Shown here: piece by piece, positions 12,730 through 57,476 of the stretch
Numbering within the stretch: position 1 is the first letter of the stretch
Layout of the letters: every line of letters begins with the position of its first letter
IMG/VR virus record: IMGVR_UViG_2711768077_000003
Coordinates: 1,191 to 65,190 of that record
DNA: 64,000 nucleotides
Source: a virus
Lineage: Duplodnaviria; Caudoviricetes
Strand: one strand, 5' to 3'
Notes under the pieces: model-generated
Database searches by the model: none
What the model saw: the letters and a program-made list of their open reading frames with translations, nothing else
Told to the model about the DNA's origin: nothing
Translations under genes and position numbers: made by a program

Positions 12730-12833
12730 TTCAATCAATCCCTCACGCCACTTGCAGGACATCAGATGGCCAAAGCATAGCAGGCGCGGATCAGCCCACA
12801 ACTCGTGGTGAAGGGAGAGAAACCGAAGCGCCG

Positions 12834-17097: not shown

Positions 17098-17489
17098 CCC
17101 GCGGTACAGCGGTCCCCGACACGGTGACGCTCCACGTCCCATTTCGGTTTGTGAAGCGTGGCGGGCGGAAGGAAATGCATTTGCCGGAAGGCGCTACGCA
17201 CTCGCGGCAGACCGACAACGCGCTGGTCAAGGCGCTGGCCCGCGCCTTCCGCTGGAAGCGCATGCTGGAGTCGGGGGATTTTACCACCATCGCCGAACTG
17301 GCCGAACGGGAGGGGCTCGCGCCCTCATACATGACCCGCGTCCTGCGCCTGACCCTGCTCGCGCCGGACATCGTCGAGGCAATCCTGGACGGAAAGCAGG
17401 GGCCGGAAGTGACGCTGGCAAGGGTACTTGAGCCGTTTCCGGTGGAGTGGGAAGCGCAGTGTCTCGACATGATCGCCCGCCGTGGTTAG
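17094..17489 (+). CDS. Recombinase-associated HTH protein
   Basis: KRGGRK, TIAELAEREG...YMTRVLRLTLLAPDIVEAILDG. Confidence 0.75.
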   Translation: MTRGTAVPDTVTLHVPFRFVKRGGRKEMHLPEGATHSRQTDNALVKALARAFRWKRMLESGDFTTIAELAEREGLAPSYMTRVLRLTLLAPDIVEAILDGKQGPEVTLARVLEPFPVEWEAQCLDMIARRG

Positions 17490-17550
17490 TTCTTGGGCGG
17501 CGCTTCCGCTCCGAAATTGGCGGCGGCACAACGGCAGATTCGGCGAGAAA

Positions 17551-21694: not shown

Positions 21695-21697
21695 GCC

Positions 21698-26509: not shown

Positions 26510-27268
26510 GCTGATCAGGTGGCCACGGCGGGCAACTTAATGCCGGGGTTGTCGGTGACACGCGCGAGCGTTTCCATGGACATATAGCGGCGTGCGACGG
26601 TTCACTCGTCGTTTTTTTTTGAGCATCAGCGCGCCGACAAGCTAGACGATGGCTTCGTCGTTGGAGAAGATGCCGATGACATCGGACCTTCGCTTGATTT
26701 CCCGGTTCAGTCGTTCGAGCGGATTCGTGGACGCGATCTGGGCTCAGTGCTCTCAAGGGAAGTCCATGTAGGCCAGAACGTCGTCCCGCGAGGCGTCCAT
26801 CGGGGTGCCGAGCTTTGCCTAATTCTGGCGCAACGCGTCGGCCACAACATCCCCACTGGGCTTCCGCGTCCACCTTGCTCTACTGGGCGAAGACCGTCTT
26901 CAGCATCGCGGCCACGGCGGTACGCTACTTGGCTGGGGCATAAGCCAGCGTATTCCGCATCCTGTGAACGCGGCGGCGCTGGTGCGTGGCGTCGAACACC
27001 CGCCGCGCGGCGGCCCGAAGCCCCTTTTGGTCGTCCGCGACCATCAGCTTCACGCCGCGCAGGCCACGGTCGGCGAGAGATCGAGAAAGTCCGTCCAGAA
27101 GGTCTCCGGCTCCGAAGGCCCTGTGACGACGCCGAGAACCTCGCGCTTGCCGAATCGAGCCAGAAATTTGGGCCCGGCCCCTTCCAGCGGGCGAGAGACG
27201 AAGGCGTTTACCCGCTGGTCGATCTCGACGTAGAGACGGCTAACCTGCGACTTCGACATGCCGCCAAG
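26510..27268 (-). pseudogene. Degenerate IS256-family transposase remnant
   Basis: Fragments MSKSQVSRL..IDQRVNAF..RPL and IASTNPLERLNREIKRR in different frames, with deletions. Confidence 0.75.
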
Positions 27269-27343
27269 GCGCAGCCAGAAACGACTATCCTGAAACCAAA
27301 TACCGAGCTACGCTTCCTTAGCACTTGCTGCGTGGAGAGCGAG

Positions 27344-27736
27344 ATGGACCAGTCAACCATCAGAGACCTCAGTTACCTGCTCGCCGTTATTGCAATGACG
27401 GGAGTCTTGATCTGGGGCCTGAAACATGTGTCGCGCGAGCTTGGCCGAGTGAATCCGACTACTAATAGAACACTCATGGCTGAGGCGCTTTCCGAGAAAG
27501 AAGGGACTGAGGCAGGAGTGGACGAAGACACCAGTTTCAGTCGAGTTTCCGGCGCGTTGGGTGCCATTGGGATCGCGGCGACATTCGTCGGAATTGGGTA
27601 CTGGGCGCTTCATGGTCTGTTCTTTGGAACTGAGGCTAATCTAGAAAAGATTTCGTCACTATCCACGTACTTCTTGGCGGGATCCGCGTTATTTATCCCC
27701 TACGGGTTTAACAAGATTTCTAAAATTTTCAATTAG
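27344..27736 (+). CDS. Small 3-TM membrane protein (130 aa; holin-like by topology only)
   Basis: Three hydrophobic segments (LLAVIAMTGVLIWGL; GALGAIGIAATFVGIGYWAL; YFLAGSALFIPYGF), basic C-terminus. Confidence 0.7.
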   Translation: MDQSTIRDLSYLLAVIAMTGVLIWGLKHVSRELGRVNPTTNRTLMAEALSEKEGTEAGVDEDTSFSRVSGALGAIGIAATFVGIGYWALHGLFFGTEANLEKISSLSTYFLAGSALFIPYGFNKISKIFN

Positions 27737-27892
27737 AAGCTAACTGCGATCGGGGCGGTCGTGGTGTGGTTAGCATCGCGGCGCTTCTAGGGCTGACCCA
27801 CGCGGGGTATCTCGTCGCCAAGAGGCGGCCAACGGACAAGACACGGAACTGACCAGGACGTGGATCGGGGCCGGAACCGGGGGAAGGACTGC

Positions 27893-30800
27893 ATGGCAGA
27901 GATACAAATATTCGGTGACGGCGCGGTTACTGTCGTTCTTGTCGCCGAAATTTCCGCCAGCTCCGCCCGCGTCACAGGTCTGATCGTCCGGCTTGCGGGA
28001 AACGAGGCGACCGTCACTCTCGCCGAAGCGATCGAAAACATTCACGTGAAACTGCTGTTCTTCGAGAACGAGGACGGAAAGTTCGGCCCGCCCCGCGACG
28101 AACTGCCTTCGATCAAGGAGGCGGCCGCACTGGGTCTTGCCGCGGCACGGGCCAAGCTGCGCGCCGAGTTGGCATCCGTCGAGATTCGGGAGAAGGGTAT
28201 TTTCGGCTTTCCAGCCGGATTCGCCAAGGCGTCAATGTCAATCCGCTTCGCCGATAGCGCGGACGGATCGCTTGGGTTCCGGCTCGACGCACGGACGCGG
28301 CTGGATGTATCGGCACAGTTCGCGCTCGAACAATATGCCATGGTTACCGCCAATGCCGAGTTGGAGGCGCGGATTACGGTCGCCTCGGAGGATGTGCTTG
28401 CATCGCTCGAATTGCTGGTGCCAACGCTCCCGAACCTAGGGTTCAAACTTCGAGATGTGGCCTTACCCACGTTGTCCTTCTACGACCTGAATGGGGTCGA
28501 CATCAAGATCGGCTCTCTGACAGCGCTGAAGCTACCCCTGCCCGAATGGCTGCCGAACATCTCCGTCGAAGGTGGCGCGCCATTTACGGTGTCGGCTGAT
28601 GCTGGCAATGGAGCCTTCGGTCTGAACGCAACGACCGATATCGATGTTCTGCTGGACTCGAACGAAATCGCGAAGATCGAAGATTTCGCGATCAGTCTCG
28701 ATGGTGGGACGATCAAAGTCGCGGGCAAGGTCACGGCCGAGCACGACACCCCGATTAACAAGCGCTTCGAATTCGGCGGCGGCGACCTGCCCGTCCGCGT
28801 GCAGGTGGCGGTAAAGAATGTGACCGCCGCCTTCGACGGCGGGGCCGGGGCCTTGGCCGTGACATGGACCTTCGAAGAAATCGCCGTCGAGGCGACCGAC
28901 GATCCCGGCGCGCGGATCGCCGTCGCACTCGATCTGGTCACGGTAACAACGTTGTCCAGCGGGGAGACAAGCTGGGACGCGGCAAATGCGAAACTTCTGG
29001 ACCTGGGCGCTGACGTTACCTTCGAGGTGCCCGACCTCAATATTATCGACGGGTTGATGAACCTGCGGCTTGGCTTTCTGGCCGATGCGGCGGGCGCTTT
29101 AGCGGAGTTCTTGGATCGGCTGGCCCGGCTCTTGGCCGCGGTCTTGCGCTACATGGCGCGCGCCGTGGGCGCGGTGACCGGCCTGTTGTCCGAAGTGGCC
29201 AAGGCGCTTGCCGGCCTGCTCGCGGACGGGCTGCGTAAACTGTTGGAGCTTCTGGACAAGGTCGGCGACGTCGTCACGCTGGAACTGCGCCTGGACGCGG
29301 CCACGCTGCGCCCCTTGCAGGTGGTCGTTCTTCCGGTGAACGCCGACCCGAAGCCCGTCGACATCGGCAGCAGCCTGCTGCGCGTGACAGCGGATCACCG
29401 CTTTGTGCCCGGCATGATTCTCGATTTCGTCAACCACTGGCAGGGGCTCGCGCTGTTGCGTGAACCTGATCTAAACGTCAATCCTCAAGTGACGATATCG
29501 ACCGACCTTTGGCTTGGGTCCGATACCGACGAGGCTGGAACGATCCCGGTCGAGTCCCCTGACCCGCTGATCTCGGTCTCGGCGACTGCAAAGGACCCCA
29601 ATGCCGCTGAAGCCATCGTGATCGCCGCACTCAGCCGCGGGCGGGGCAAGTTTTTTCAGACTTTCGGGGCAGAGCGAAAGAAGGCGGAGAAAAATAAAAA
29701 CGGCGTCATCACCTTCACCAGTGTCGGCGCCATTTCCGATCTGAAGGCGCTGTCAACAGACAACTTCCTATTCAAGCTGGACGCCGAGCGGCTGAAAAAC
29801 AAGATCACCGCTCTGATGCCGCAAGGGCCGCCAGAAAGCGGGAGCGACAAGCTTGCGCAATTCATCGACATTGAAGAGTTCACTTTCGATCCCGACAGCG
29901 CGCCTAAATTCAAAGGCAATTTGAAGGTCCGGATCAGAATTCCGACCACCGGGAATAACGAGATCCTGATCCCGCTGGAAATCTCCGCGGTGCTAGACAT
30001 AGAGACTCTGGAACTGACGCTGGATGCCGATGAAGAGATCATCATCCAGAGCAAGGCCATCGACGAAGTGATCTACGGGTTCGGCCTGATCCTCGCGCCG
30101 GTCGGGTATGACAAGGACAAAACCGTCGTAGGCGACTTGTTCAAGATCGGTTTTAAGAAAGGCGATTTGTCGCTGGAACTTGCCGCCGGTGCCAAGGCGC
30201 TTCTATCCTATGACCAGTTGTCGGGCGACGGCGCGTCGCTGGCCTTCGAAGCCACGGAATTCGCAATCGATCGCGGCGGACTGGACCTGATCGCAAGGGT
30301 CATGGCCGATCGCCCCGTGCGGCTGGGCGGACTGGATCAGCCGTTCCGCTTCAATCGCGGCTCAATCTCTATTCAGGGCGGTGTGCTACAGGGCGGGACA
30401 ATCTCGGGGTATGGCCCGATGCCGCCTGCGCTGATCGGCGAGGCAAAAGCCGAGATCGACCTCGTGTTCGGCCGACGCAACGGAAACCTCGCCCTGGTGG
30501 CCGCCAACGCCAAGCTGGAAAAGGAAGGAGAGCCGCTTTATTCCACCGGCACCCGGTTCCGCGTGGTGCTCGACGCGCTCGGCCTTGGTTTCGTCGATCC
30601 TGTCGTCGGCCCGACTCAGTTCTATTTCCAGCTGTGGGGTTCTGCCAGTTTCGAGCCGGAAATCGGCGCCTTTGATGGCGGGCTTCTGGAAAACTTAAAG
30701 TCGGTAGCGATCCGGCTCGAGGGTGCGCCGCTGACCGGCGACGGGCGCGAGTTGATCAAACACATCAGTTTCCTGGTCGAACTGGACCCGCCGCTGCGTG

Positions 30801-33800
30801 AAAAGCTGTTCGAAATCTTCAAGTTCGAAATTCGCGGCATCGCATTCTATCCGGCCAGCAAGGCCTGGCCCGACAATCCGCCCGCCATCGGGATCGCTGG
30901 ACAGATCTCTTTCCTCGAAGCTGGCGATGTCGTCTCCTCCGAAATCAGCTTCCACGAAATCCTGATCGCTTTGCCGGAACCGGGCGGCGATCTTCCGTTG
31001 CCGCGGATTCGCGCGGACGGGCTTTCGATGCTACTGCGCATTGGCGGCGTGGCGCAGGTCGAGGCGACTGCCCTCGCCGTAGATGGCTCGATCCCGTCGC
31101 TTTACGCCCCCGTGGCGCTTCCGGCCGATGTGACAGCCAAGGGCTTTCTCGCCTCCGGTCGGATCGACATCGTCGGGCTTGGCGCCTTTGGCGGCGCGAT
31201 GGGCGTGCTGGAGCTGAAAAAGAACAACCAAGTCAAACACGCAATGTTCATCTATGGCCAGGCCGAGAAGCTGACAGAGCGGATCGACACGCCGATCGGC
31301 CCGCTGTTCATCCGCGAGGTCGGCTTCGGCTTTGGCAAGAATTATACTCTGTCGGCCTTGGCCGGTGCGGACGAGGCCAAGACGCCGCGCGAATTGGTCA
31401 CGACACTGGACCGTTTGTCGAAGGTTCAGGGGAACCTTACGAACTTCAATGCCTGGACACCGCAATTCGACAAGGACGCCCTGACGCTGGCCCTGCGGGG
31501 GATGATCTCTGTCGCGGCCACCTCGACCAGTTCCGCCTCTTACGATGCGGACGGTGAGGCTAAGGTGTCGAACCCGTTGCTGATGGATATCGTCCTGGCG
31601 CTGCGCACCGATCTGACGTTCTTCGTCAACGTCCGCGGATGGCTCGCCACCAACTACAATGACTGGTTCATCGCCCCGTCGGGGGCAGAGTTCAAGGAAC
31701 GCCCGACGCTGCGCGGCTATCTGTATTTCTCGGTGCCGCGCAAAGAGTTCCTGGCGCGCTTCCTGTCCGACCCGACGGGGATCGTCGGCAAGCATCCGGA
31801 ACTGCCCGACGCACTGGTCAAGGCCATTGAGGGCACTCGATTCGCAGCAACGCTGTATATCCGTCCGGGCCTATATCACACCGAACTCGGCTGGCCCTAC
31901 GAATTGGGGTTTGAGTTGGGCAAGCCAACGGACAATTTCTATCTCTCGCTGTCCGCTGGTCTCGTGTTCCGGATCGAGGACGCGACAATGCTCTATGGCG
32001 TCGCGTTCAAGGCTTCGGGCCTGATGCAGTTCGGCGGAGAGGTGGGCAACGCCAACTTTGGCGCCAGCGCCACGGCCCGGGCGGATTTCCTGCTGGGCGC
32101 TCGCTTTATTGCCTATCTGGCACCGTTGAACCCCCGGGATACCCTGTTCTACGGCGAGGTCTACTTGGGCCTTACCTTGAAATTCTCGGTATCGGTCTGG
32201 CTGTCGTTCAAGGTGTTCCGAAAGCGGTTCACGCTTCGGATCGGCTTTTCCATCGGCCTGACCATCGAGATCGCCGCCGAGGTTGTGCTGTCCGGCCAGG
32301 GGCTGGGTGCGCGGGTTTATGCGTCGGTGGGTGTGCAAGGCTTCGGCCGGTCACTGTCTGTGGGTGTCGGATTTAGCTTTGGCGACAGCGCGCTGGACCG
32401 GGCGCGCGGCCGGGTCGCGCGGTTCATGCAGCTGGGCCTGGGCATCGACCCGCCGCGCGAAGAGACGCTGCTAGCCCCGGCACCCGCCGCCGAACCGGCA
32501 CGGAGCGAGCGGGCGAAAGAAGCGGACCGTTCGATCAGCGAAAGACACCCGCCGCAACCGCCGAATGCGCCACTGCCCGACCCGGTTACTGTGGAGCCAG
32601 CGAAGGGCCGGCAAATCGAGGGCACCGATTTCTGGGCGGTTCTCTTGCACGCCGGCAAGGATCCGAATGGCGAGGACACCTATCTGATCCAGCTCATCCC
32701 GCGCGATCATTCCGAAAGAGTGCGTGACACCGCCACTTTCTATGCGGAACCGTGGTTCATCAAGGATCAGAAGGAGGGCGCAAAGACGGCCGGGGCAACG
32801 AAGGGCCGCACCGAGGGCGACTACAAGATAAAGCTGACTACGGATATTGACGGGCTGAAATATTTCGGGCGCCTTGCGGAAGGCGACCCCAAGGCCCCCG
32901 CAACGCTGACGGCCATCAAGAAAGATGTCGAACTTCAGCTTTTCGCCAATCTTGCGCGTCCGGTCGGGGAAACCGAAAACGGCGACCTGGACCTGAATTT
33001 CCTGCTGACCGAGTGTTTCCTGGCGCATCCCGACAGCGTTCCCGGCGAGTTGGCGGAGTTTGGCTTTGGCGAGTCCCTGCCGGTCCAGCACACGCATCCT
33101 GACGCATTCGTGGACATCCCGCCTCGCCAGTCACGGGACAACCAGGCGCAGCGCTTCGCGGCCACGGATCCCGTCCTGGAGGCTTCGGTGATCGCCGAGG
33201 AAAAGCGCAGCGCGCTGATCAACAAGATCGGCGAAAGCGCCTTTGCGCTGGCTGAACGTGCGCGGGACCGCTCCGGCGCCGAGGACGCGGTTCGACTGGT
33301 ACAAGAGACCGAAACGCTGAATGCGGTGGATTTCGGCCTAACCTTCCTTCTCAAGGCGTCAAACCTGGACTTGTTCGAAAAAGACGGCAAGGCCCGGCTG
33401 GAGCTTTACAAGCGGGTTGGGGACTATTCGGCCGGTAACGAGCCGGACTGGGATTTCGTCAAATGCTCTGTTGAACTGCTTAATCATCCCGACGAGTCGT
33501 TCGAGGCGACCGAGCCCCGGCTGGACGATGCGCGGGTTGAATTGGCCGACGACGGGTATCGTTTGTACTGGGATCTCGAACCGGCGTTCGGGTCTTCTGC
33601 CGAGCTTGGCTTCGCCAAGGACCCCGAAACCCGGCTGGCTTTTTACGAGATAGAGCGCAGTTTCGAAGGCGCGGACATCGCGATGACGGCGCAGTTCCGG
33701 ACCAAGAGCGCGACCCCGCAGCAGCACAATTTTGACCCTGTCACCAACACCGTCGTCGTTAGCCGTTCGCGCGCTGCGCTGCATTTGACCGACGATCTAA

Positions 33801-36800
33801 GCCAGGGCGGCGTCCCCGAAGCGCTGCGTGCGCAGCTCTTTGGAACGCCCTTGCCCAAGGGTGCCAGCGCCCGTGCGATCTGGACCGCGGCCTTTGGAGC
33901 GTCGCCGCAGGCATCGGTGGTCTACAAGGTGACGGCCGTGGACGTTCTGGGCACGCGCACAGGGCTGCGAGTGCTGGAACGGACAATCGCGCGCCCGCCC
34001 TTGGACGTGCGTCCGCCGCTGTCCGTCGAATTGGCCGTCAGCTTCGAGGGCGAACTTCCAAAACTGCAACAGGATGCGGACCCACAGATCGACCTGACGC
34101 TAATCTATGAAGATGTCGAGCATTTTGCCGCCGCACAAGATCAGCCGCTGCAATTGCGGGTCCGGTCACACACGCTCTTGGGCGGGGGAGAATACGGTGC
34201 CGACGCGGTGGACGACGCCAAATCGCGTCCTGGCCAGGCGGATATCGATACCAAACGCGAGCGCGACGTAGATCTGTTCTTGGTTCCGGATGGCGGGGGG
34301 GCGCTGAAGGTCAAGCTTGGCTTGGCAGAAGGCGCTTCTTCGAAAGGGCTTCCCAAGGACAGGCGGTACAATCTGACTTTGGTGCCGAACGGCACGGCCG
34401 TAGCCGATCCCGCGCTTGAACTGCGTAGGGCGCTGCACATCCCGAAAACGGCCGGCACCGCCCAGGACCTGCGCGCCTGCCGCGCCTTCCTGCGCAGTTT
34501 CGGGAAACTCTATATCGACCCCACCCCCTGGCTCTATGTCGAAACGCTACTGCGCGCGGAAAAGACCGTTCCGCAGGCCGACAGCGTAGAGGAGGTCAGG
34601 GAATTTGCAGCCGTCGTCGAGGCCCTGGAGACACCGCTGTCGCTTCCGTTCCTTGCGCTCGAACAGAACCAGATCGAGCGCAACGCCGGGCGGCTGGAAC
34701 TCGTCTATCCCGTCGAGGGCGCCGAACTAAAACATCTGGCTGAACAAGCTGGGCCGGTGGTGACGCGTCGGCGGCTTGATCCCGAGCGGCGGGCGGCGAT
34801 TCGCCTGGACTTCAACGCCTCCGGCGCCCGGCTTGCCAAAGCCTCCGGAACCCGGCTGGCGTCGCTGGTGGCGGGTTACGACGTGTTTGTTGTCGACCCT
34901 GCGCGACTACGTTCGCTAGGCGGCAAAGATGGGCCAACTGCCGACCAGGTCGCCGCCGAAGCGCGCAAGCGGACTACGGTCAAGGTCCTGCCCCGCACCC
35001 TTGCCGGAACCTCGCCGTCTGCCCTGCCCGACACCCGCTCGATCGAGGTGCGCTATCCATCGGACACCGCCCGGACCGATCCCGAGCAGCTCAATGGCCG
35101 TACGCACGCGCCATGGTTCTCTGCCGCGGAAAGCCTCGTCGCCTTCCCGCGCCGCTGCCTGCGGCGGTCGCTGTTCCCCGCGCCGGAAGAGGCGATGATT
35201 TCGGAATTGCTGGCAGAACGGAAGGTGCGGAAGATTGACTTCGCGCTGACGCCGCTTCCAGGCGGTCTGCCGGATGAGCCATTAAGCCGCGCGAAGTGGC
35301 TTGCCAATGCACCGGTCGAGGTGAAGCGTGACATCGCACATCCCAATGCGGAAAAGCCTGCTCCTAAGGTCAAAGCGACCGCAGAGAGCGACGGCGACAT
35401 CATCACTTGGACCTACGAGAGCGACGATGACATTACCGTAGCCGAGGTGAGGGCCATCCTGCGGGGCTTGGTCATCCAGCCCGATGAAGTTGTCGAAGAC
35501 GCCTATCGCGCCTGGCGCGCGAGTGGCTCGAACCCGGGCTTGGCAAATCAGTTCCGGTTGCGCGTGGCGATCACCGCGACGGACGATCAAGGCAGCGCGG
35601 CTGAAAGCCATACCGAAGTCGATCTGGCCAGCAGCCTGCATCCGGTTCTGGCCGACACGCTCGATGCACTCAACTATATGCCGTACGACGAAAAGACGGC
35701 TGGGGCGGTCTATCGCGCCTTCGAGGTCGTGCGAGAGCCGGTGCCACCCCTGGAGACGGACGGGCTGGACACTTTTCTTGACGCCCGCGCGCCCTCTGCC
35801 GATCCCTACGGCTGGGGCGTTCTGCGCGCGATGGGACTTGCCGAAGGGGTGCGCATCTATGACGTCGACCGGGCGCAATTCCTGAAGGGTCAGGCGCTGT
35901 TCGATCATGTGGACAGGGTTCTGACGGAGGCGCTGAAACGGTACGACGTCGCGCCGCTGGGCCATCCGTTTGTCGAACTTGTCGACGTGCCGGACGATTT
36001 CATGGGCATCAGCTCTTTCGATGGCCGCGCGGAAGCCCCTGCAGAGGACACCCAGCGTATCCGCGCCGGCGATACCTCAATCCTGCAGATCGGCCTGCGC
36101 CCCCACGCAGACCGGCTGAGCGTGCCAGAGCCACCGGTGCGGTATCTTGTCTGTTCGCGCGTGGACGACAAGGCGCTTGCACCCGAAAAATTGACGTTTC
36201 CGGCCGACCAGGGCTCGGCGCTGATCGATACCGTCGGTCTGCCGCTGGAGCAGGGCGCCGGCGCAGCGCGGTTCGCGGTCGGCAACGCGTCCTCAATCGT
36301 ATTCCCGGGCCAACCGGAACTTCGGATCCCAGGTGGCGCGCAGATTTACTATGATCGCCTGTCGCGCCTCGTAAAGGGCCGGCCCGCGGTGCTGATCCGT
36401 GTGGCGGCGGTGGAAACCGGGTTCAAGTTCGGCGCCTTCCGCGACGCGTTGCAGCAGGCCATCGACCCGGCTCGACTGACGATATCGCCGTGGATCGACA
36501 CGCTGGACGATTGGACCGACACGCGAGACAAGGAGGGCACGTTGGGAGGCAACCCGTTCGATGTCTTTCCGCCGCTCGACGGGGCGCTATTGCGCGTCAT
36601 GCTCGACCTTCCGATCGCCGGGTCCAGCGACGAAACCCAGGCCTCGCGCTTCAAGTCTTGGCTGCCGCCGCGGCACAATCCGGCCAACGATTCTGCCGCG
36701 TTCGACGCGACAGCCTTCGCGGCGCGGTTTGGTGCGTGGTCGGAACGGTTCCTGCGGCACGGCGCGGCGATCAAGGGCCGCGGCGCCGCCACGAGTCACA

Positions 36801-38965
36801 TCGGCTTTGCCTTTGCCGCGCTGACCACCGGCGAAAGCTATGCCCGCACGCCCGATCAGAACGGTCGCGTCAGCGTGTTCATGATCGACCAGTCCCGCCT
36901 TGGCCGCGAGCGGTATTTCGCGATCCGGCCGTTCGGGCGTTATGTGTCTATCGAACAGGCGGCCAATGGCGGCGGCGAACGTCCCGTCACGCTGGAAGGT
37001 GCGCTGCATACTGACTGGCAGCGTCAGTTCGCCTCGGTGTCGCTGCCGCGATCTAAGCCCTTGGACCCGCCCGCTATCCTGTCCACCGCCCGCGCCGAGT
37101 CCGACGAAATCCGGCAAACGCGAGGCGTGGAACTTGTCGTCGCGCGCACCGCCGATCAGATCGTTTCCACCGCGAACCTGCGGGCCGAGCGGGCACTGCA
37201 GGGTGCGTGGACCGGCCTGGAACTGCGCGCCAGCTACCCCGCGCTGGATATCGCCCGCGCTTTATTGGGGAACAAGGACTTCGAGGCCTTCGAAGACTTT
37301 GACGACTGCGATTTTGGCGCCGACACGATGAAGCCGGGTGACATGAGCATCATGACGCCCGAGGACCTCGCACGGCTGGGCGAACGCGCGCCCGACGCCT
37401 GGCGCGGCGCGATCCGGTACGAAGTGGCTGGCGCCCCGCCGTTCTTTGATCTGATCGCGATGGTGCACCAGTCGGCGGGTGTCGTGGTCTCGGACGTCTC
37501 TGCGGTGCCGCTGCCTTCGTCCGGTGCCGTGCTGCGCTTGCCGCCGCGCGAGAAGGGCGGCGGCGTGCGGCACCACGTCCCGGCGAAAGTTCCGACGTGG
37601 CGTTTCGATTACGTCGAGGACGACGGCACGCTGAAGGCACAGGTCACCTTCGACCTTCCCATGGTGCGCAATATCGATCTCATGCCGGACGTCGACATCA
37701 CCGCCTGGACGGGCGACGACCCCGCCAAGGTCGCCACCGTCTACCGGCTGCCGGATGCGCAGGCGAGCTATCGTATCAGCACCCTGGCCCCGGACCTCGC
37801 CACAGCCACGCCGCTTATCGAGGTGCTGCCCGCGCAGGAGGTCAAGAACCCATTGGCCAGTCTCTATCACCCGATGCTCCTGTCCAACAGCTTCGACGCG
37901 GTGGCAAAGACAGTGACGCTGTCAGGGCAGAAGCCTGAACCTTACTGGAACTGGCGCCTGAGACTGACCGCCACGCTGCCCTCTGGAAAAGCACCGGAGG
38001 AGATCCATCTGCCCGATCCAACTGCCGATGGCAAAGGCGGCTTCACCAACCTTCCGACCGATTTCGACGCAGAGGTGTGGCTGCTTTGGGCCCCGCAGCG
38101 GACGTTCGAATTCATCGTCGAAGACCTGGATGGAGTGGCCGATCTGGTAAGTGCCCTAACAGCCTATGACGATGTGCCCGGAGTGGCCAAGATGATCACG
38201 GACCTGACGGCCGCGGGCGAAGGGGACAAGATCACCGCGGCCCTCCCGCTCGGTCTGGCGCCAGACGTGTCGGGGGTCACGGGCGCGGGCGCGACCGAGG
38301 GCGCGTTCACCTTTCCCGACAAGCTGGAGGCCGGGATCCCCGTTTCCGCCGCGCGGCGCAGCCGCGGTTGGGCGGAACACCTGCCCGGCAAGACCCGCGA
38401 CCTAGTGAACCGGATCATGAGGGCCCTTGGTGAGCTTCGCCGCCGGCAGTTGCCGACCGGCAAGTCGGGACTGACCGCCGTCTACCGGCGGACCGAGGTC
38501 AGTAGCAAGATCAGCGGTCTAGCCGCGCCCTACGCGCATTTCCGGTTGCTGCGCTACAAAGCGGATGACGGCACAGGGATCACGGACTCGCAGTTGCTTA
38601 CTCTGATCGACGCGCTGGAGGCGGCGCCGAGCAGCGACGAGCGCATTCGGGCACGGGCGCTGGACACCCTGGAACTTGCGCAAACGCCCGCCGCCGAGGT
38701 GACGATCGTCTGGCCGGTGGCGGACAAAGCTGTCGCCGTCAAGGACCTGACCAGCGCGGCGGTTTCGGATTCGATCTTCGCCGGTGTTCACTGGCTTCCG
38801 GACCGGGCAGAGCAGGACAACGTGCCCGCAAAGATAAAGGACATCGTGCGTGGCGCCATCCGCGAACGGGTGATCGGCGAAGGCGCGCGGCTGCGGCTAT
38901 CGGCCTACCGCGGCAACGCGCAGGCCGACACGGCGCTAATCGACCTGACTCTCGGCACGGAGTAA
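27893..38965 (+). CDS. Giant hypothetical protein (about 3690 aa); beta-rich DUF6603-like region plus FN3-like segments
   Basis: Uninterrupted 11-kb ORF with RBS ggaagga; no signal peptide; domain calls by eye only. Confidence 0.85.
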   Translation: MAEIQIFGDGAVTVVLVAEISASSARVTGLIVRLAGNEATVTLAEAIENIHVKLLFFENEDGKFGPPRDELPSIKEAAALGLAAARAKLRAELASVEIREKGIFGFPAGFAKASMSIRFADSADGSLGFRLDARTRLDVSAQFALEQYAMVTANAELEARITVASEDVLASLELLVPTLPNLGFKLRDVALPTLSFYDLNGVDIKIGSLTALKLPLPEWLPNISVEGGAPFTVSADAGNGAFGLNATTDIDVLLDSNEIAKIEDFAISLDGGTIKVAGKVTAEHDTPINKRFEFGGGDLPVRVQVAVKNVTAAFDGGAGALAVTWTFEEIAVEATDDPGARIAVALDLVTVTTLSSGETSWDAANAKLLDLGADVTFEVPDLNIIDGLMNLRLGFLADAAGALAEFLDRLARLLAAVLRYMARAVGAVTGLLSEVAKALAGLLADGLRKLLELLDKVGDVVTLELRLDAATLRPLQVVVLPVNADPKPVDIGSSLLRVTADHRFVPGMILDFVNHWQGLALLREPDLNVNPQVTISTDLWLGSDTDEAGTIPVESPDPLISVSATAKDPNAAEAIVIAALSRGRGKFFQTFGAERKKAEKNKNGVITFTSVGAISDLKALSTDNFLFKLDAERLKNKITALMPQGPPESGSDKLAQFIDIEEFTFDPDSAPKFKGNLKVRIRIPTTGNNEILIPLEISAVLDIETLELTLDADEEIIIQSKAIDEVIYGFGLILAPVGYDKDKTVVGDLFKIGFKKGDLSLELAAGAKALLSYDQLSGDGASLAFEATEFAIDRGGLDLIARVMADRPVRLGGLDQPFRFNRGSISIQGGVLQGGTISGYGPMPPALIGEAKAEIDLVFGRRNGNLALVAANAKLEKEGEPLYSTGTRFRVVLDALGLGFVDPVVGPTQFYFQLWGSASFEPEIGAFDGGLLENLKSVAIRLEGAPLTGDGRELIKHISFLVELDPPLREKLFEIFKFEIRGIAFYPASKAWPDNPPAIGIAGQISFLEAGDVVSSEISFHEILIALPEPGGDLPLPRIRADGLSMLLRIGGVAQVEATALAVDGSIPSLYAPVALPADVTAKGFLASGRIDIVGLGAFGGAMGVLELKKNNQVKHAMFIYGQAEKLTERIDTPIGPLFIREVGFGFGKNYTLSALAGADEAKTPRELVTTLDRLSKVQGNLTNFNAWTPQFDKDALTLALRGMISVAATSTSSASYDADGEAKVSNPLLMDIVLALRTDLTFFVNVRGWLATNYNDWFIAPSGAEFKERPTLRGYLYFSVPRKEFLARFLSDPTGIVGKHPELPDALVKAIEGTRFAATLYIRPGLYHTELGWPYELGFELGKPTDNFYLSLSAGLVFRIEDATMLYGVAFKASGLMQFGGEVGNANFGASATARADFLLGARFIAYLAPLNPRDTLFYGEVYLGLTLKFSVSVWLSFKVFRKRFTLRIGFSIGLTIEIAAEVVLSGQGLGARVYASVGVQGFGRSLSVGVGFSFGDSALDRARGRVARFMQLGLGIDPPREETLLAPAPAAEPARSERAKEADRSISERHPPQPPNAPLPDPVTVEPAKGRQIEGTDFWAVLLHAGKDPNGEDTYLIQLIPRDHSERVRDTATFYAEPWFIKDQKEGAKTAGATKGRTEGDYKIKLTTDIDGLKYFGRLAEGDPKAPATLTAIKKDVELQLFANLARPVGETENGDLDLNFLLTECFLAHPDSVPGELAEFGFGESLPVQHTHPDAFVDIPPRQSRDNQAQRFAATDPVLEASVIAEEKRSALINKIGESAFALAERARDRSGAEDAVRLVQETETLNAVDFGLTFLLKASNLDLFEKDGKARLELYKRVGDYSAGNEPDWDFVKCSVELLNHPDESFEATEPRLDDARVELADDGYRLYWDLEPAFGSSAELGFAKDPETRLAFYEIERSFEGADIAMTAQFRTKSATPQQHNFDPVTNTVVVSRSRAALHLTDDLSQGGVPEALRAQLFGTPLPKGASARAIWTAAFGASPQASVVYKVTAVDVLGTRTGLRVLERTIARPPLDVRPPLSVELAVSFEGELPKLQQDADPQIDLTLIYEDVEHFAAAQDQPLQLRVRSHTLLGGGEYGADAVDDAKSRPGQADIDTKRERDVDLFLVPDGGGALKVKLGLAEGASSKGLPKDRRYNLTLVPNGTAVADPALELRRALHIPKTAGTAQDLRACRAFLRSFGKLYIDPTPWLYVETLLRAEKTVPQADSVEEVREFAAVVEALETPLSLPFLALEQNQIERNAGRLELVYPVEGAELKHLAEQAGPVVTRRRLDPERRAAIRLDFNASGARLAKASGTRLASLVAGYDVFVVDPARLRSLGGKDGPTADQVAAEARKRTTVKVLPRTLAGTSPSALPDTRSIEVRYPSDTARTDPEQLNGRTHAPWFSAAESLVAFPRRCLRRSLFPAPEEAMISELLAERKVRKIDFALTPLPGGLPDEPLSRAKWLANAPVEVKRDIAHPNAEKPAPKVKATAESDGDIITWTYESDDDITVAEVRAILRGLVIQPDEVVEDAYRAWRASGSNPGLANQFRLRVAITATDDQGSAAESHTEVDLASSLHPVLADTLDALNYMPYDEKTAGAVYRAFEVVREPVPPLETDGLDTFLDARAPSADPYGWGVLRAMGLAEGVRIYDVDRAQFLKGQALFDHVDRVLTEALKRYDVAPLGHPFVELVDVPDDFMGISSFDGRAEAPAEDTQRIRAGDTSILQIGLRPHADRLSVPEPPVRYLVCSRVDDKALAPEKLTFPADQGSALIDTVGLPLEQGAGAARFAVGNASSIVFPGQPELRIPGGAQIYYDRLSRLVKGRPAVLIRVAAVETGFKFGAFRDALQQAIDPARLTISPWIDTLDDWTDTRDKEGTLGGNPFDVFPPLDGALLRVMLDLPIAGSSDETQASRFKSWLPPRHNPANDSAAFDATAFAARFGAWSERFLRHGAAIKGRGAATSHIGFAFAALTTGESYARTPDQNGRVSVFMIDQSRLGRERYFAIRPFGRYVSIEQAANGGGERPVTLEGALHTDWQRQFASVSLPRSKPLDPPAILSTARAESDEIRQTRGVELVVARTADQIVSTANLRAERALQGAWTGLELRASYPALDIARALLGNKDFEAFEDFDDCDFGADTMKPGDMSIMTPEDLARLGERAPDAWRGAIRYEVAGAPPFFDLIAMVHQSAGVVVSDVSAVPLPSSGAVLRLPPREKGGGVRHHVPAKVPTWRFDYVEDDGTLKAQVTFDLPMVRNIDLMPDVDITAWTGDDPAKVATVYRLPDAQASYRISTLAPDLATATPLIEVLPAQEVKNPLASLYHPMLLSNSFDAVAKTVTLSGQKPEPYWNWRLRLTATLPSGKAPEEIHLPDPTADGKGGFTNLPTDFDAEVWLLWAPQRTFEFIVEDLDGVADLVSALTAYDDVPGVAKMITDLTAAGEGDKITAALPLGLAPDVSGVTGAGATEGAFTFPDKLEAGIPVSAARRSRGWAEHLPGKTRDLVNRIMRALGELRRRQLPTGKSGLTAVYRRTEVSSKISGLAAPYAHFRLLRYKADDGTGITDSQLLTLIDALEAAPSSDERIRARALDTLELAQTPAAEVTIVWPVADKAVAVKDLTSAAVSDSIFAGVHWLPDRAEQDNVPAKIKDIVRGAIRERVIGEGARLRLSAYRGNAQADTALIDLTLGTE

Positions 38966-38970
38966 GAGAC

Positions 38971-41900
38971 ATGAGCCGACCCCTCCGCTCAATCCTCATC
39001 ATCGGCCCGCGGTGGAAGGACGGCGCACTTTGGACTTTCGATGCCGATCTGTTCATGGAAGTTCCCAAAGCGAAAAAAGAACCGCTGGTCGAACACACTC
39101 CAACCTTGCGCGGACTTGGCGCACGGATCGAGGCCGAGACACGGGTGATCGGAGATCCGGTCGAACTGCACGAGCCGCCTCTTCTGCGCGGGCGACTGGA
39201 CCTCGAGAAACCCGCCTTCGTTCAGCTTCATGGCCCCAAGGATACGCCGCACGGGTTCCACGATGCCGTGCAGCCGACTGGCACCGGCCGTGCCGATGTG
39301 CTGCTCGCCCAGACAGAGCCATGGCCCAACCCTTGGGACTGGCATCACCAGCAAGAACGACCAAACCCCAAGAAACTGATCGTCGTGCCGGACCAGAGGC
39401 TCGTGGCCGGGCGTATTGCCTTGCGTGTTCCGCGGGCAAAGAAGAATAAAAATGGCCTAGCGGAGTTTCTGCATTACAGCCCGGGCAAACACACGATCTT
39501 TCAAGGCCATCCTCTGGTCGGAGACGACGCTGGCAAGGGAACTGGGCCCTTGGTTCGCCTCGTCCCGGATGGGATTGAGATCGATGTGCGCCTTCCCCAT
39601 CCCCTGATCGACATTGTCCCGAACGTTCCCGATACGCTTCCGGTGCGAGTCCGCATCGAACCGGACGGCACCACCGGATTCCTCGCACGCCTAGTCGCCA
39701 TCCTCGACACCGATGGCCCGCCGCCAAACCTCTCCGCACTGTGGCAGAGGGCGTTCAACGCGCTCGAGGAGCAGGAGGCACCGCTGCGAGCGCAAGCCGA
39801 TACCCGCGCCGCCGTGCCGCCATTTGCCTGGCAGCTGTCACAAGACAAGACTGGTCTGCACCTTTACGCGCTCGACAAGTCGGCGGATTGGCGCATCCGG
39901 GTAGATCCGTCGGTTCTGGCGCTGCGCCTGGAAACCGACACGCCGTTCGGTTCTGAAACGCCCGCCGTGGCGAGGTTGGACAGCCTGGACGCAGCGGGCT
40001 CGGCCGATCTGACATTGTGGCGAAAGGGAAAGAAGACGCATCTGGAGTTCCGGTCCGCCGCCAACCCCGATCCGTCCAAGGATCGGCCGGAAATAACGGC
40101 AACCTATGGAGGGGGCGAGAAATACGAGCTCAAGACGCTGGCCACGCCGTCCTTGGAGGTCTACGTCCCGATCGCCGAGGCAGGCGCCCGCCGCGCCGTG
40201 CCGGACACTGTGCCGGATTGGGCGTTTCTTCCGGTCAGAGACGGGACCCTGCAGATCGCCGCCGCCCCCTTCGTGCCCGAAGAACAGGCCAATCCGCTGC
40301 CCAGCGCATCCTCGCTGATCGGTAATTGTGTCTTCCGTCAGACGCATCTGGCAATGGCAGTCGACGGGGCAGAGGACGTGAACGTTTCGGTCAGTTGGAC
40401 CGCCACCGCGGCTGGCGCCATCGCACTGAACTTCGCGGCCCCGTATGGGGCCCTGCGCGAAGCTCTGTGGTCGGCGGAAGAGGCGCCCACCAGCGAGCGG
40501 CTGCTGCCGACCGGCCGCACTGATCCGGGCCATCTGCGCGAATTACCCGCGAGGTTCGGCTCCGGGATCGCGCGGAACGCCAGCCTTCAGCTGACGCCGA
40601 CGGGCGGCGCGTGGAGCCTGACGCTGGACGGGACCATGGCACAGTCGATCCCCGCGATCCACTGGACCGCGATTGTCGGGCTGCCCCTGATCCCGGCCGT
40701 CCCGATGCTGGCCAGCGGCGCCGAGACGCGGCCGTCCGACATGCGGGCGGTGGTGCCCGTGGAACTGGATGGTATCATCCGCCTTGAGTCGGACGGTAGC
40801 ACCGCGCTGGCAAAGGTCGCGAACGACCCCGTCAAGACGCCGTCCGTCACCTGGCCTTGGGTCGAAAAGGCGGATCTGCCTGCCTGGGGCGTGCCGTCGG
40901 TGAACTTCGTTTCACCCACGGCGCCGGGGCTTGACTATGCCTGGGCGCCCGGAACACGGCCCGGCCGGGACAGCTTCGACGTCTCTTTGCGCTTCGATCT
41001 ACCGATCCTCGACGAGCTATATGCCCAACCCGACCCCGAAGCCGAGGCCGGCACCGCGGCCGACACGCCGCCGCCCCCGGCGCCGGTGACCGGAGTGCTC
41101 GATCTTGCGCAGATATCCCTGCTGTGGTCGCAGCGCGCCTTTGCCCTTGCCACGACGCGCACTCAAGGCGTGCGGGCCACAGCCTGGGCCGGCCACGGCG
41201 TGCCCGTGGACGGCCCCATCGCACTGGCCGCGCCCTATAGTGCGGACGCCACGGTGACCTTTGTCCGCGACTATGCGTTCCCCTCGGGCAACCTGCCGCT
41301 GGGCGGTTACAGCCTAACGTGGGATCGCGTGAAACCAACGCCCTTCAGCGGTGAGACGGCGCTGCTTGGCCCGATGGGCGGTGAGGATGAGCCGCTCGCA
41401 CTGGGCCTCACGGAGGAGGACGGGGCCCTGCATCCCAAGGGCGGCAAGGATGTTGCTACGCTGAAACTGGCCGGGTTTGCGCCCGACGCCTATCTCGACA
41501 AGAGTCTTGAGAACGACGATCCCACCAGTCTGTCCGATACGCGTGGCACCGCGATGGCGCGCGCCCGGACAACGAAGGACGGCGTGTCCCGCCCCGCCCG
41601 GTTCCGCGACCGCGATGGGAACGGCAAGGTCCGGTCCAAAGGGCGCGATCTGGTGACGTGGAACGATGCAATTGTCGTGAAGGGACTTGGATCTGACGCC
41701 CTGTTCTGGGTGCGCGACCTGCCGCATGACGAAGACGGCGTGTTCGACGGCACGAAGAACCCCGTAGAGGGTCGGCTCGGTCCGGACCCGACCCCCTTCG
41801 CGGCCAGAGCCTTGCAGGATGCCTTATACGAATGGCGCCTGTTCGAACGGCGGGCTGAGATGGAGAGCGCCGATTTCTCGATCCGGCACAATGGGCTGAC

Positions 41901-44900
41901 CTTGACGCCGCTGCGCCTGCTGCACGTCGGGACGAAGGAAATCTGCGTGCTGTGCCGCGCCAGCCTGGAGGGCCCGCTGACCGACCCGGAAACACGTGAA
42001 GCGTTCGGGGAGGAAACGCCCTACCGCATCGGACCGCTTGTCGAAATTAAATTCGGGCGAAGCGGCGGCAAGCTGGCCCTGGCCAAAGAGGCGCGGATCC
42101 GAGCGCTGGAGTCCGCCGGCGGCCTGGATCTGGTCCTTTCGGACAAGGACCCCGAACGCCTCGAATTTCCGCTGGTTGCCGCGCTGGTCCTGCGGCTGGC
42201 CGGGGCCACAAGCACCGTTGCGGACCCGGTGGGCTTGCGGCTTGCTGCGCAGTTGGGCGAGCTGAGTGACGATCCGGTTTTTCGCAGGATCGAGCTCTCG
42301 TTTTCGCTGTTTAACTACGACGTGACGCTTGCGATGGAGGTCGATGGAAAGGCGGCTCACCCGACCTATCAATTCACGCATCCCGACGCGCGCCCGGCGG
42401 ACGGGGTCTGGATCGCCGCCGCCCGGCTGGAACAGGTCGGTCCTGGGACCTCCGGATGGCGACTGGATGTGACCCTCGACGCGCGGGTAGAGATCGGGAC
42501 GCAAGGGGCGGATCGGCCGCACGTTTTGGACACGACCGGCGGCATGATCCGCTGGCTTGGCTACGAGGATACAGATCCGCCGGAAATACGGATCGATCAC
42601 GCGCGCGGCGCGATCTGGCTTTACCTCGAACCGGGCGGCCTTTCCACGATGGCCAGTCCGATCGAGGGGATGATGCTGACGACAGTCGACGAATGGCGAT
42701 TTAGCGCGGGCCTTGTGACCGGGACGGTTGCGGGCTCTGCAATTCCCGTCTGGCCACTCGCCTCCGGCTTGGTTCAGGCGCGCATGGCGGGCGAAGCGAA
42801 CGGTGTGCAAGTGGCATTGACAAGCCACACGCGCTGGTCGGGCGAAACCCGCGACAGCGAGGTCCTGCTGACCCGCGAGGCGGTGAAGGACGGTGCGCTG
42901 AGGTTCCAGAAGAGCGGCATCTCCTGGGACCCGGACGGACTTTCGGTCAAGGCGCCCGGAAATCCTGCCAAGGCCGCGCGCGTGGAAACCCGAAACGTTG
43001 CGCCGATCCGGCACGATGTTAGCGTGTCACTGCGCGATAGCCCGATTCCCGTTACCGCGCTTGCCCGGGACGGCGCCACGGTCCGGCTGACGCGGTCCGT
43101 AGCGCTGGAGCTTCAGGTGCGCCACCGGCTGCTGCGCGACAACACCGAACTGGCGGCTTGGCGCAGCTTTGACAATGTGCAGTTGACCTCAGAACAGCTG
43201 TGGCAGCAGGACTGGACGGGCAAGGCCTTTGGCCCGCGGTTCGAGGGCGGCCGCACGAGCTATCGCGGCGAGATCGACAAACGCCCCGAATATGCTGGCA
43301 TCGGCGATCGGTCACTGATGCTCAGCGGATTCGACGATCCGCTGCTGCGCACCGACGGCCACGACACACGGTTGATCCTGGTCGGCGGCGGGACCTGCGT
43401 GTTCGTACATCACAAGACGACCCATGCCTTCGGCCTGCCCTGGGCGATCGGCATGGACACCGGCGCGTCGGACCTGCCCAAGTCGTTCTGCGATCTGATG
43501 GTGTTCGGCGAAGGCGACGCGTGGAGAGCCCCCGTCGACGATGCGACACCGTTCGAGATTGCCGCCGATGCGTTGCCGCCCCTGGTTCAAGTACCGTCGA
43601 GTGTTCTGGGCAAGGCGGAGCTTGACGCCTTGTTGGCGACGAAACCGGGCATCGGCGGTGCGGCAGACCTCGTCTGGCCCAGCCTGCAAGCCTTTGTCGA
43701 ACGCGACCCGGCGGATGCAAAAGTGGGGGACGTCAAGACTTGGCCGCTCTTCCTGCCATCGCTCGTCGCGTTGCAGCAGACGCTGAAGTACATCGATCCC
43801 GACAAGCGTGCGGACTGGCGCATTCTGTCCGTGCGCCACCGCGCCAATGCCTCGGCTGTCGCGCTGGCCTTCCCGCATGAATCGATTGCCGCGCCGCCCG
43901 CCGCGCTGGAACGGGCAACCAAACTGCACTTGGTGGCGCTGGACAAAGGCAGGGCGCCCCGCTTCTTCGCCCTGAATGTTCCGCCGGATATCGCCGAGAT
44001 CGACACCGCGTGGGACCTGCTGGGCCCATCCCGCCTAGCCGACCTAGCCGAGGCGCAGATCACCGATGCCGTGGCGGTCGGCTTGGCGTTGCTGGGCCGC
44101 AAGACCGGTACCGGCGGCGAAGATGGCAAGGAGCCCGATATCCGGGTGCGCGATGTGCGGCCGGTGCCAATCGACCGCGCGGACAACCCTTTTGGCAGGG
44201 AGCAGTCGCAGCTCTTCGATGCGCATCAGCAGGTCTATCCCTCTCCCGCGCTGGGCTGGCCTGAAGCTGTTGACGCGCAAGGTGCGGCGCGGTTTGCCAT
44301 GGATGGCCGCGTCGACGCGCCTGTGATCTCGTCCAAAGCCGGGCTGGCAGGGCGCGTCGCAGTTCTATCGACCGGCTCCGCGGTGGCGACACGGGCCGAC
44401 AGGGCGCGCTACCTCGTCACGCAAGCGCGCGTGGTCTTCCACCATGGCGACGAGTTCGACAAGGTCGCGCTGCGGGCGCCGCCTGCGCGGCATTTGGCGG
44501 TTCTGTCCCCCCGGGCGCGCACTCCGATCCGCGAGGCCCGGGAGGAGGCGCTGCAACAGGCAATGGCCAAGTCTGCCGAAGACGGCAGCACCTCCACCAA
44601 TTCGCTGCTTCCCGCGACGATGGGGGTAATTCCCGCGATCTACTCCCGCGCACTGATCGGAGAACGGCCCGGCGTGCATGAGACCTTCATCGACGCTCTC
44701 CTCAGCGACGGCAACCGGTCCGATCTGATCGACCGTGGCGCGCGGGGCGCTGGACGATCGGCGGTCCTATCGCCAGTCTTGGCGCGGCAATTAAGAACCC
44801 CGCGCAGTCCCGCGCTGCCCGAAGATCCAAATTTCGATCTGACTTCGCGCCGGCGCACCTATGTTTCGCTGTTCGACCGTACCGCGCCGGGCGGTCTGGC

Positions 44901-46269: not shown

Positions 46270-46328
46270 AGAGGCCGCACGTGCCTCGCCGTCCCGCGGC
46301 CCAGAAAATTGACATGAGGAGGTTAAAG

Positions 46329-47147
46329 ATGCCTGCGAAAGAGTCAGTCGATCAAATCAGGACAAGCGAGGCCACCAAATGGGATGCGGTCAAGACAATT
46401 ACCGGTGCCGCGCTCGACTTCCACATCACTTTTCTAGGCTGTGCCAAGGGGCAAAAACACGATGAAGCGATTGACGCAACAGCCCGGGCGCGGCTTTTGC
46501 GCATTTTGCGTGCCGTCTCCTGGGTCGAAAGCGCCCATGGAACCGCAGGCGCCAACCAACCAAAGCGTGATCCCATGCAGTCGGGTAATCCCAAGGATGC
46601 ATGGTGGAAGGAATTGACCGGTCAGTCCGGTCAAGGCTCGCGTATTGTACGCGGCCCAAGTCTGACAAATCTCTGGGCCAACGAAGTCGCCGCTGCCGCC
46701 GCGGCTTTCAACGGGTTCGATGCCAATGCGGCCATGGGCAAACTGGGGGACGAGAAGAAGGGGCATGACGACAGCAAGTTCACACCCGCCCACAGCTATT
46801 ACTGGGGCGTCGTCTATTTGATTCATCGCATCAATACGAAAGCGGGCGACAAGACCTACCAATGTGGCGACCTTTCACGCGCCCGACTGATTGACGGCGC
46901 CGTGGAATACAATGGAGGCGGTGTAAAGGACTATAGGGAACGTATTGAAACCGCGCTTGCGCTGATCGGCGACTTGTCGGAACGCGCCGTCGATACCCCA
47001 AAGGACGGCAGTCATCAGCGCCGTTTGGATGCCGTCCTGCTTGCTGAAGAAATGGGCAAACTGAAACTCCGAAACGTGGATTTACGCGCCGTCAAGGCGG
47101 AATTTGACAGGGACGGCAACGTAATCGCGTTATCGGTAGAGTTCTAA
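46329..47147 (+). CDS. Lysozyme-like/lytic transglycosylase-fold protein
   Basis: RBS gaggagg; AVSWVES (putative catalytic Glu), DPMQ (GLMQ-like), EYNGGG...Y. Confidence 0.6.
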   Translation: MPAKESVDQIRTSEATKWDAVKTITGAALDFHITFLGCAKGQKHDEAIDATARARLLRILRAVSWVESAHGTAGANQPKRDPMQSGNPKDAWWKELTGQSGQGSRIVRGPSLTNLWANEVAAAAAAFNGFDANAAMGKLGDEKKGHDDSKFTPAHSYYWGVVYLIHRINTKAGDKTYQCGDLSRARLIDGAVEYNGGGVKDYRERIETALALIGDLSERAVDTPKDGSHQRRLDAVLLAEEMGKLKLRNVDLRAVKAEFDRDGNVIALSVEF

Positions 47148-48449: not shown

Positions 48450-48456
48450 GGGGTCC

Positions 48457-52422: not shown

Positions 52423-52431
52423 GTCGAGGTC

Positions 52432-57474: not shown

Positions 57475-57476
57475 CG

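Follow-up and report, generated by a model that had tools for sequence, protein, structure and literature searches.

A two-gene module of giant proteins whose conserved beta-rich core is a candidate distant relative of DUF6603

Two giant genes, G1 and G2, follow one another on the plus strand of a 64,000-nucleotide stretch of DNA (hereafter the window), which corresponds to positions 1,191 to 65,190 of the IMG/VR record IMGVR_UViG_2711768077_000003 (Duplodnaviria; Caudoviricetes). The analysis concerns G1 and, within it, the stretch at 29900-32440 (amino acids ~680-1527), which an original prediction, made from the letters of the DNA alone, had described as a long amphipathic beta-meander resembling DUF6603 and the bridge-like lipid transfer proteins of the AsmA/TamB/VPS13 type. 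Neither G1 nor G2 matched Pfam, NCBIfam, PHROGs, PADLOC or PDB sequences at the thresholds used, a PDB profile search with the two proteins returned nothing usable, and RefSeq annotates both only as hypothetical. The coordinates of all features are collected in Table 1.

The open frame of G1 (27860-38965, plus strand) comprises 3,701 codons and opens at a GTG at 27860, from which all G1 residue numbers given here are counted. Because the identical database protein (P0003) has 3,690 amino acids, the ATG at 27893 was taken as the true start. A word-indexed search found 159 database proteins matching the flagged region of G1; among the matches listed, the G1 relatives are 2,096-4,132 amino acids long, hypothetical where named and devoid of a precomputed Pfam domain, and the UniRef cluster of one of them is named 'LysM domain-containing'. 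A profile of the region matched 477 cluster representatives at E ≤ 0.001, including 339 at E ≤ 1e-30, among 1.84 billion, and the best 150 of these 477 were all clear family members. Since this many database proteins and cluster representatives match its region, the G1 open reading frame (ORF) is real, and so is the family to which it belongs. No relevant literature on giant bacterial proteins or genes tied to defence islands or beta-barrels was found, as judged from search results. A match of G1 amino acids ~2003-2034 (window ~33866-33961) to Pvc16_N, a part of contractile injection systems, was taken as chance (E 0.15, 12.2 bits).

Sequence conservation in G1 peaks in the flagged stretch. 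Mean column conservation among 21 full-length sequences was 0.61-0.69 at amino acids 762-1511 versus 0.26-0.51 elsewhere in G1, and mean column identity in a regional alignment of 38 sequences (A2) was 52%. The flagged stretch is likely to be the functional core of G1, because conservation is highest there.

AlphaFold2 modelling of the 900-residue region with the 38-sequence alignment gave a mean predicted local distance difference test score (pLDDT) of 78.8 and a predicted template modelling score (pTM) of 0.55. In this model 51 strands comprise 508 of the 900 residues and helices are few; 27 strands have at least 10 residues, including four of 21-24 residues close to the C-terminal end. Period-2 alternation of hydrophobic residues was above that of shuffled sequences (z > 1.64) in 16 of the 33 strands of at least 8 residues and was most marked in the long strands of region residues 726-844 (z 1.9-5.3), while a windowed analysis placed the highest signal at amino acids 1251-1500 and 1-250. 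The amphipathic pattern is genuine, but it gathers towards the end of the region and is not evenly distributed over 850 amino acids. The predicted meander of about 850 residues was therefore borne out as an almost all-beta stretch with real alternation, but not as a uniform series of short strands. All of the peptides quoted in its support are present in the translated frame and lie inside the flagged stretch, at amino acids ~1095-1510 (nucleotides ~31140-32390), that is, only in its second half. G1 had also been said to lack a signal peptide and an N-terminal anchor. In agreement with this, a plain Kyte-Doolittle hydropathy scan (19-residue window), used here in place of a dedicated predictor, detected no transmembrane-type segment in G1 except for a marginal window at amino acid 25, which includes charged residues; in the family consensus, hydrophobicity of the N-terminus is not conserved. 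The observation underlying the original prediction is confirmed.

The two halves of the modelled region differ in what they resemble. For the first half (amino acids 651-1079), no Pfam match was found at E ≤ 10, and a language-model search returned only unnamed clusters, the nearest named one being DUF6603 at 0.87, which was treated as a lead only. The second half (amino acids 1080-1550), modelled alone, reached a pLDDT of 86.2 and a pTM of 0.79. The domain model is an antiparallel up-and-down meander of some 22 strands that includes a few short central helices, four amphipathic strands of 21-24 residues and a C-terminal helix.

Sequence comparison suggested an affiliation for this domain. Pfam DUF6603 (PF20248), with a curated cut-off of 27 bits, is a bacterial domain about 500 residues long that has not been characterised, and no mention of DUF6603 or PF20248 was found in the literature searched. 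When the 900-residue region was searched by language-model features, DUF6603 clusters came first (score 0.94, with 197 of 256 features in common and 21 of 30 hits), in a type of search in which one third of shuffled proteins can give ten out of ten best hits in a single family. Comparison by hhalign of the region profile A2 with a DUF6603 reference alignment of 27 sequences, made up of domains from four proteobacterial genomes and 23 database proteins, gave a probability of 69% (E 4.3e-5), and the second half only (amino acids ~1086-1543) gave 81-82%, with 343-354 collinear columns when extended. In the first aligned motif, the one singled out by the original prediction, the family consensus A-F-F-L-Y-x-Q...P-T-P-x-G...R-E-V-G-F-G-F-G-Y-R stands against S-L-F-x-F-G...P-I-G-G-P-P-A-F...G-G-G-F-G-I-N-R of DUF6603, and in the second R-P-G-L-F-H-x-E-x-G-W-P-Y stands against G-G-Y-H-P-x-F...Y-P-V-V-P; the amphipathic strands after the second motif also align. 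The likeness thus consists of collinear motifs of the form F-x-(Y/F)-G...P-I-G-x-P...G-F-G-x-N and then G-(Y/L)-H...(Y/W)-P, followed by long amphipathic strands, in a domain that likewise lies inside giant proteins without any other known domain; a difference is an insertion of about 100 residues ahead of the second motif in G1.

Relatives of G1 showed traces of the same family. DUF6603 was the commonest sub-threshold Pfam family in the 38 members of A2 at E ≤ 1 (three members, best E 1.7e-4), and the nine other Pfam families listed in that scan were found in one or two members each, among them the barrel families YaiO (2 of 38, E 0.012) and MspA (1 of 38, E 0.11). In 11 long full-length relatives the sole Pfam match at E ≤ 0.01 was to DUF6603, in one of the 11, at 15.5 bits and at the equivalent position (residues 1115-1252). 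From these comparisons we infer that amino acids ~1080-1550 form a distant DUF6603-superfamily domain that is not captured by the Pfam model. The resemblance to DUF6603 that had been proposed holds in part: remote homology of the second half is indicated by hhalign and by the motifs occurring in order, but the Pfam hidden Markov model (HMM) gave no match.

True DUF6603 domains were found in four of 301 genomes searched, a number that includes the source genome, itself without a match. In these four loci the domain lies inside proteins of 1,513-3,390 amino acids, and in all four the gene is followed by three conserved genes of ~500-680, ~300-340 and ~1,230-1,770 amino acids, none with a Pfam family. 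The G1 locus differs in that a single protein of about 2,400 amino acids (G2) follows instead of three companions, and no relation between the two arrangements was detectable: when the companions, and also two full-length DUF6603 giants, were compared with G1 and G2 by hhalign, the probability was never above 6%, with profiles of 2-4 sequences. Because the companions lack similarity to G1 and G2, the G1-G2 pair appears to be a separate architecture that has only the core domain in common with DUF6603. In one of the four loci (L058) the second and third companion genes are apparently fused.

Searches with the predicted structures pointed to the walls of beta-barrels. Among the best 50 matches of the domain model in VIA-align, a method independent of Foldseek, ranks 1-37 were all transmembrane beta-barrels spanning nearly the whole domain; the best was the sucrose porin 1a0s (Z 13.2, root-mean-square deviation (rmsd) 12.8 Å, 270 aligned residues), and next were the maltoporin 1mpr (Z 12.8) and OccD/OpdQ 3t24 (Z 12.7). 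The 900-residue model gave a similar list of barrels at Z ~10. Stacked Ig-like sandwiches with no link to DUF6603 had been named as the outcome that would speak against the proposal; the best structural matches were barrel walls instead. The likeness to outer-membrane porins of 16-18 strands lies in the next-neighbour antiparallel meander with many long strands (Z 12.4-13.2 over 233-270 residues, model residues 11-431). The domain differs from them in its overall shape (rmsd 12.5-14.1 Å), in sequence (5-11% identity), in its strands of up to 24 residues, and in lying inside a protein of 3,690 amino acids without a signal peptide by hydropathy scan. Given the high rmsd, the order of the strands and the contacts between neighbours are porin-like while the overall curvature does not superpose, and the domain is predicted to resemble, loosely, the wall of an 18-strand porin. 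With the 900-residue model, Foldseek returned only rows with a template modelling (TM) score ≤ 0.16 (LptD, ApoB100, Rhs/Tc, teneurin), and a viral structure library gave nothing credible.

G2 is the constant partner of G1. The 39 related loci in reference genomes belong to Alpha-, Beta- and Gammaproteobacteria, a marine Synechococcus, Verrucomicrobiota and Acidobacteriota. In 30 of them the gene immediately after G1 is a G2 relative, in five more a long frame that runs off the end of the locus comes after G1, and the other four loci are contigs that are short or broken. In the database, G2 was called at 2,038 amino acids from a later start, and the longer frame of 2,432 amino acids is probably real, because relatives of 2,428-2,538 amino acids align with it over their full length; these full-length relatives carry no Pfam domain. 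G2 diverges faster than the core of G1, its nearest relatives being 37-48% identical versus about 70% for the G1 region. A pair of 3,266 and 2,191 amino acids on a Sinorhizobium chiapasense plasmid (L064, 10647-29296), whose core domain shows only about 25% identity, suggests that modules made of two giant genes form a wider superfamily; that pair adjoins an integrase, and after it come a papain-like cysteine protease and an AbiEi/AbiEii pair.

The module is rare, horizontally spread, mobile and accessory. It was found in none of 24 other species of the same genus, in one of 300 other genomes of the class and in none of 50,697 phage records, and it was present on 11 plasmids, eight of which are predicted to be conjugative.

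The genes surrounding the pair in other loci often belong to defence systems. The neighbourhood scan covered 117 upstream ORFs from 35 other loci (the longest non-overlapping ORFs of at least 180 amino acids within ~7.5 kb), omitting 29 ORFs at the far ends of loci, the seven ORFs of about 600 amino acids described below and an end-truncated ORF (L005:2-700). PADLOC matches at E ≤ 1e-12 were obtained for 19 of these ORFs in 14 loci, and in nine of the loci the matches were system-specific: Thoeris-type TIR, complete CBASS, Azaca ZacA/ZacB, HmaC, AbiLi/AriA-like and PDC candidates. Pfam identified among the upstream ORFs further TIR proteins, nSTAND3, EAD7, GAP1-N2, a MafB19 deaminase, four integrases and four transposases. 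This defence neighbourhood is an association rather than a statistic, because there is no background control.

Two of these loci may be described individually. In a member of the Lysobacterales (L025:2729-5777, minus strand), the G1 homologue is immediately preceded by Azaca ZacA and ZacB (PADLOC E 7e-125 and 1e-163), and in another locus (L007) a full CBASS set of cyclase, patatin effector and CapP occupies the same place.

Taken together, the results can be read as follows. The flagged stretch would form the conserved structural core of a giant protein made in the cytoplasm, and G1 and G2 would form a self-contained, horizontally mobile two-gene module. Amino acids ~1080-1550 would fold as an antiparallel next-neighbour meander of about 22 strands, a divergent member of the DUF6603 superfamily, shaped as an 18-strand porin wall and ending in four hairpin strands of 21-24 residues, each with one hydrophobic face. 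This sheet may bear the load of a large G1-G2 assembly as its wall or shell, and the module may act in inter-genomic conflict, in defence or in attack, rather than in lipid transport within the envelope. The whole of this proposal, a DUF6603-like meander as the wall or shell of a G1-G2 assembly in inter-genomic conflict, has an even chance of being right, and most of the doubt attaches to function.

Several results weigh against this proposal. PF20248 did not match G1 in a search of the whole protein at E ≤ 1, in searches of the region and its pieces at E ≤ 10 (the HMMER check that had been suggested for the window protein) or in a six-frame search of the genome at E ≤ 10, so that formal membership of DUF6603 fails for want of a match to the Pfam model. 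The HMM of the region scored about 1 bit on each of the four true DUF6603 proteins, the hhalign probability was no higher than 69-82%, which is below the level usually taken as proof, and all lines of evidence for DUF6603 are sub-threshold and below proof. G1 and G2 showed no similarity to the DUF6603 companions by phmmer and hhalign, with thin profiles of 3-4 sequences. Foldseek found no match of the domain model in PDB at E ≤ 0.001, and the porin superpositions, at rmsd 10-15 Å, may reflect a generic meander sheet. As to function, PADLOC-DB 2.0 gave only noise for G1 (E 0.047) and nothing for G2; five of the 14 PADLOC-positive loci had only generic domains (AAA, subtilase, ABC, kinase, methyltransferase); and hot spots gather any mobile cargo.

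The proposed wall or shell would be of interest for several reasons. Bacteria of several phyla maintain some 18 kb of coding sequence as an intact mobile unit, and neither protein matches any family, solved structure or literature searched. The putative DUF6603 link would unite two blocks of giant-protein dark matter in one superfamily and would provide both with a concrete hypothesis on structure, namely a beta wall like that of a porin. With Thoeris-, CBASS-, Azaca- and Abi-type genes as frequent neighbours, a role in immunity or conflict is worth considering.

Alternatively, G1-G2 might be a fused and distant form of the DUF6603 cassette, acting outside the cell on a target as an exported surface or injection-type apparatus. 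The core domain in common with the DUF6603 giants, the conserved unknown genes that follow those giants and the LysM name of one relative's cluster are consistent with such a function, but the absence of similarity to the cassette companions and of any copy in the phage records argues against it, as does the lack of conserved secretion genes nearby. Moreover, no secretion, fibre, LysM or wall-binding Pfam domain was found in G1, G2 or the 11 long relatives, which include the LysM-named one. An exported apparatus is considered unlikely.

It is also conceivable that G1 is a membrane-attacking effector, whose amphipathic hairpins would insert into the cell's own inner membrane or that of a target and form a large beta pore, as an abortive-infection killer. 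The transmembrane barrels at ranks 1-37, the amphipathic hairpins, the neighbouring defence genes and the weak YaiO and MspA matches in relatives all fit this possibility, and the lack of an export signal by hydropathy scan would mean that the protein meets the membrane from the cytoplasm. However, a bilayer would require strands only half as long, the superpositions are poor (rmsd 10-15 Å), the domain is embedded in mid-chain in 3,690 amino acids, no sensor, protease or trigger domain could be recognised, and there was no PADLOC model match. Such an effector is judged quite improbable. The same low likelihood applies to the proposal that the two giant proteins make up a new system of conflict or defence, in which the DUF6603-type meander would be a giant porin-like pore or cage, made in the cytoplasm and triggered to enter a membrane or to close around a cargo; if true, it would provide the first function for the whole DUF6603 superfamily.

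The long amphipathic strands might also act as a hydrophobic surface or cavity for binding or transferring lipid, either as in AsmA/TamB/VPS13, the form put forward in the original prediction, or as in microsomal triglyceride transfer protein and apoB. G1 resembles AsmA, TamB and VPS13 in being large, signal-poor and beta-rich with amphipathic strands, and its strong period-2 amphipathicity, over strands of 21-24 residues that exceed the need of a bilayer, fits such a role. The best Foldseek probabilities of the domain model were for microsomal triglyceride transfer protein (0.51, TMq 0.19) and ApoB100 (0.33), with TM scores of 0.18-0.19; the weak LptD row of the larger model is of the same kind. 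These large lipid transfer proteins (6i7s, and ApoB100 9e9r) likewise have extended amphipathic beta-sheets, but they are secreted proteins of eukaryotes, unrelated to G1 in sequence, and their matches are poor (E 0.03-0.06).

Further results did not favour lipid transport. No lipid-transfer Pfam family, including AsmA (PF05170), TamB (PF04357) and chorein, matched G1 at E ≤ 10. When the AsmA and TamB models were run genome-wide at the same threshold, matches occurred only on contigs other than that of the window; a canonical TamB lies on contig C157 (172.7 bits) and AsmA on contig C162 (77 bits). No AsmA/TamB/VPS13/ATG2-type structure was among the best 50 of four Foldseek and VIA-align searches with both models, which does not by itself exclude this reading, and two chorein-N rows in the viral library had probabilities of 0.10-0.12. 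No internal repeat was detectable by self hhalign, the hydropathy scan gave no N-terminal anchor, and G1, being rare, mobile and accessory, is unlike an envelope housekeeping transporter gene. The evidence gives no support to the tempting lipid-bridge reading, which is corrected here, and a lipid-binding or lipid-transfer sheet is likewise judged quite improbable.

Table 1. Coordinates of G1, G2 and other features in the window and in related loci
Feature	Coordinates	Strand	Remarks
PLD-like nuclease-type ORF	11515-12801	-	in low-GC stretch
Large serine recombinase	15616-17097	+	upstream of G1
Type I restriction-modification operon (HsdR, HsdS, HsdM)	17482-24456	+	complete; upstream of G1
PrrC anticodon-nuclease gene	21698-22825	+	between hsdS and hsdM; PADLOC PrrC E 2.6e-130
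IS5-family DDE transposase	25569-26462	+	upstream of G1
Upstream ORF	26747..27736	+	329 aa; no family; no relative in 39 loci; outside conserved module
G1 (giant gene 1)	27893..38965	+	3,690 aa from ATG at 27893; from ORF list and translation
First half of modelled region (aa 651-1079)	29810..31096	+	beta-rich; no family; AlphaFold2 block, pLDDT mostly 60-90
Most conserved core of G1 (aa 762-1511)	30143..32392	+	by column conservation; coincides with flagged stretch
Putative DUF6603-like domain (aa 1080-1550)	31097..32509	+	by AlphaFold2, hhalign, VIA-align
G2 (giant gene 2)	38971..46269	+	2,432 aa; starts 6 nt past G1 stop
Downstream ORF	46266..47147	+	293 aa; 4-nt overlap with G2 stop; no family; not conserved with module
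ORF of ~600 aa in seven related loci	L001:6175-7962; L010:6040-7785; L011:5566-7404; L015:5852-7741; L016:5902-7848; L023:5898-7823; L036:5593-7413
aa, amino acids; GC, guanine-cytosine content; nt, nucleotides.

Outside the module, little is held in common among the loci. For the 293-residue ORF that overlaps the end of G2, neither the 39 loci nor the sequences after G2 in five other genomes contain a relative, and the regions downstream of G2 in five genomes have nothing in common. An ORF of ~580-650 amino acids lies immediately upstream of G1, in either orientation, in seven of 36 other loci, but the window lacks it; none of the five members that were scanned has a Pfam family. Beyond this ORF, no conserved neighbour of the pair was found.

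GC in the window is 0.58-0.67 over ~12-48 kb versus 0.69-0.71 at 48-58 kb. The recombinase, the IS5-family transposase and the PLD-like ORF lie together with G1-G2 in the stretch of lower GC, which looks like one inserted island; no tRNA gene marking it was found in the window. A gene-transfer-agent tail cluster (47373-58433, minus strand) borders this island directly and includes a DUF2793 protein with a BclA/C1q-like C-terminus, a combination of GTA_TIM, Phage-tail_3 and Rcc01698_C, and a lambda-type tape measure.

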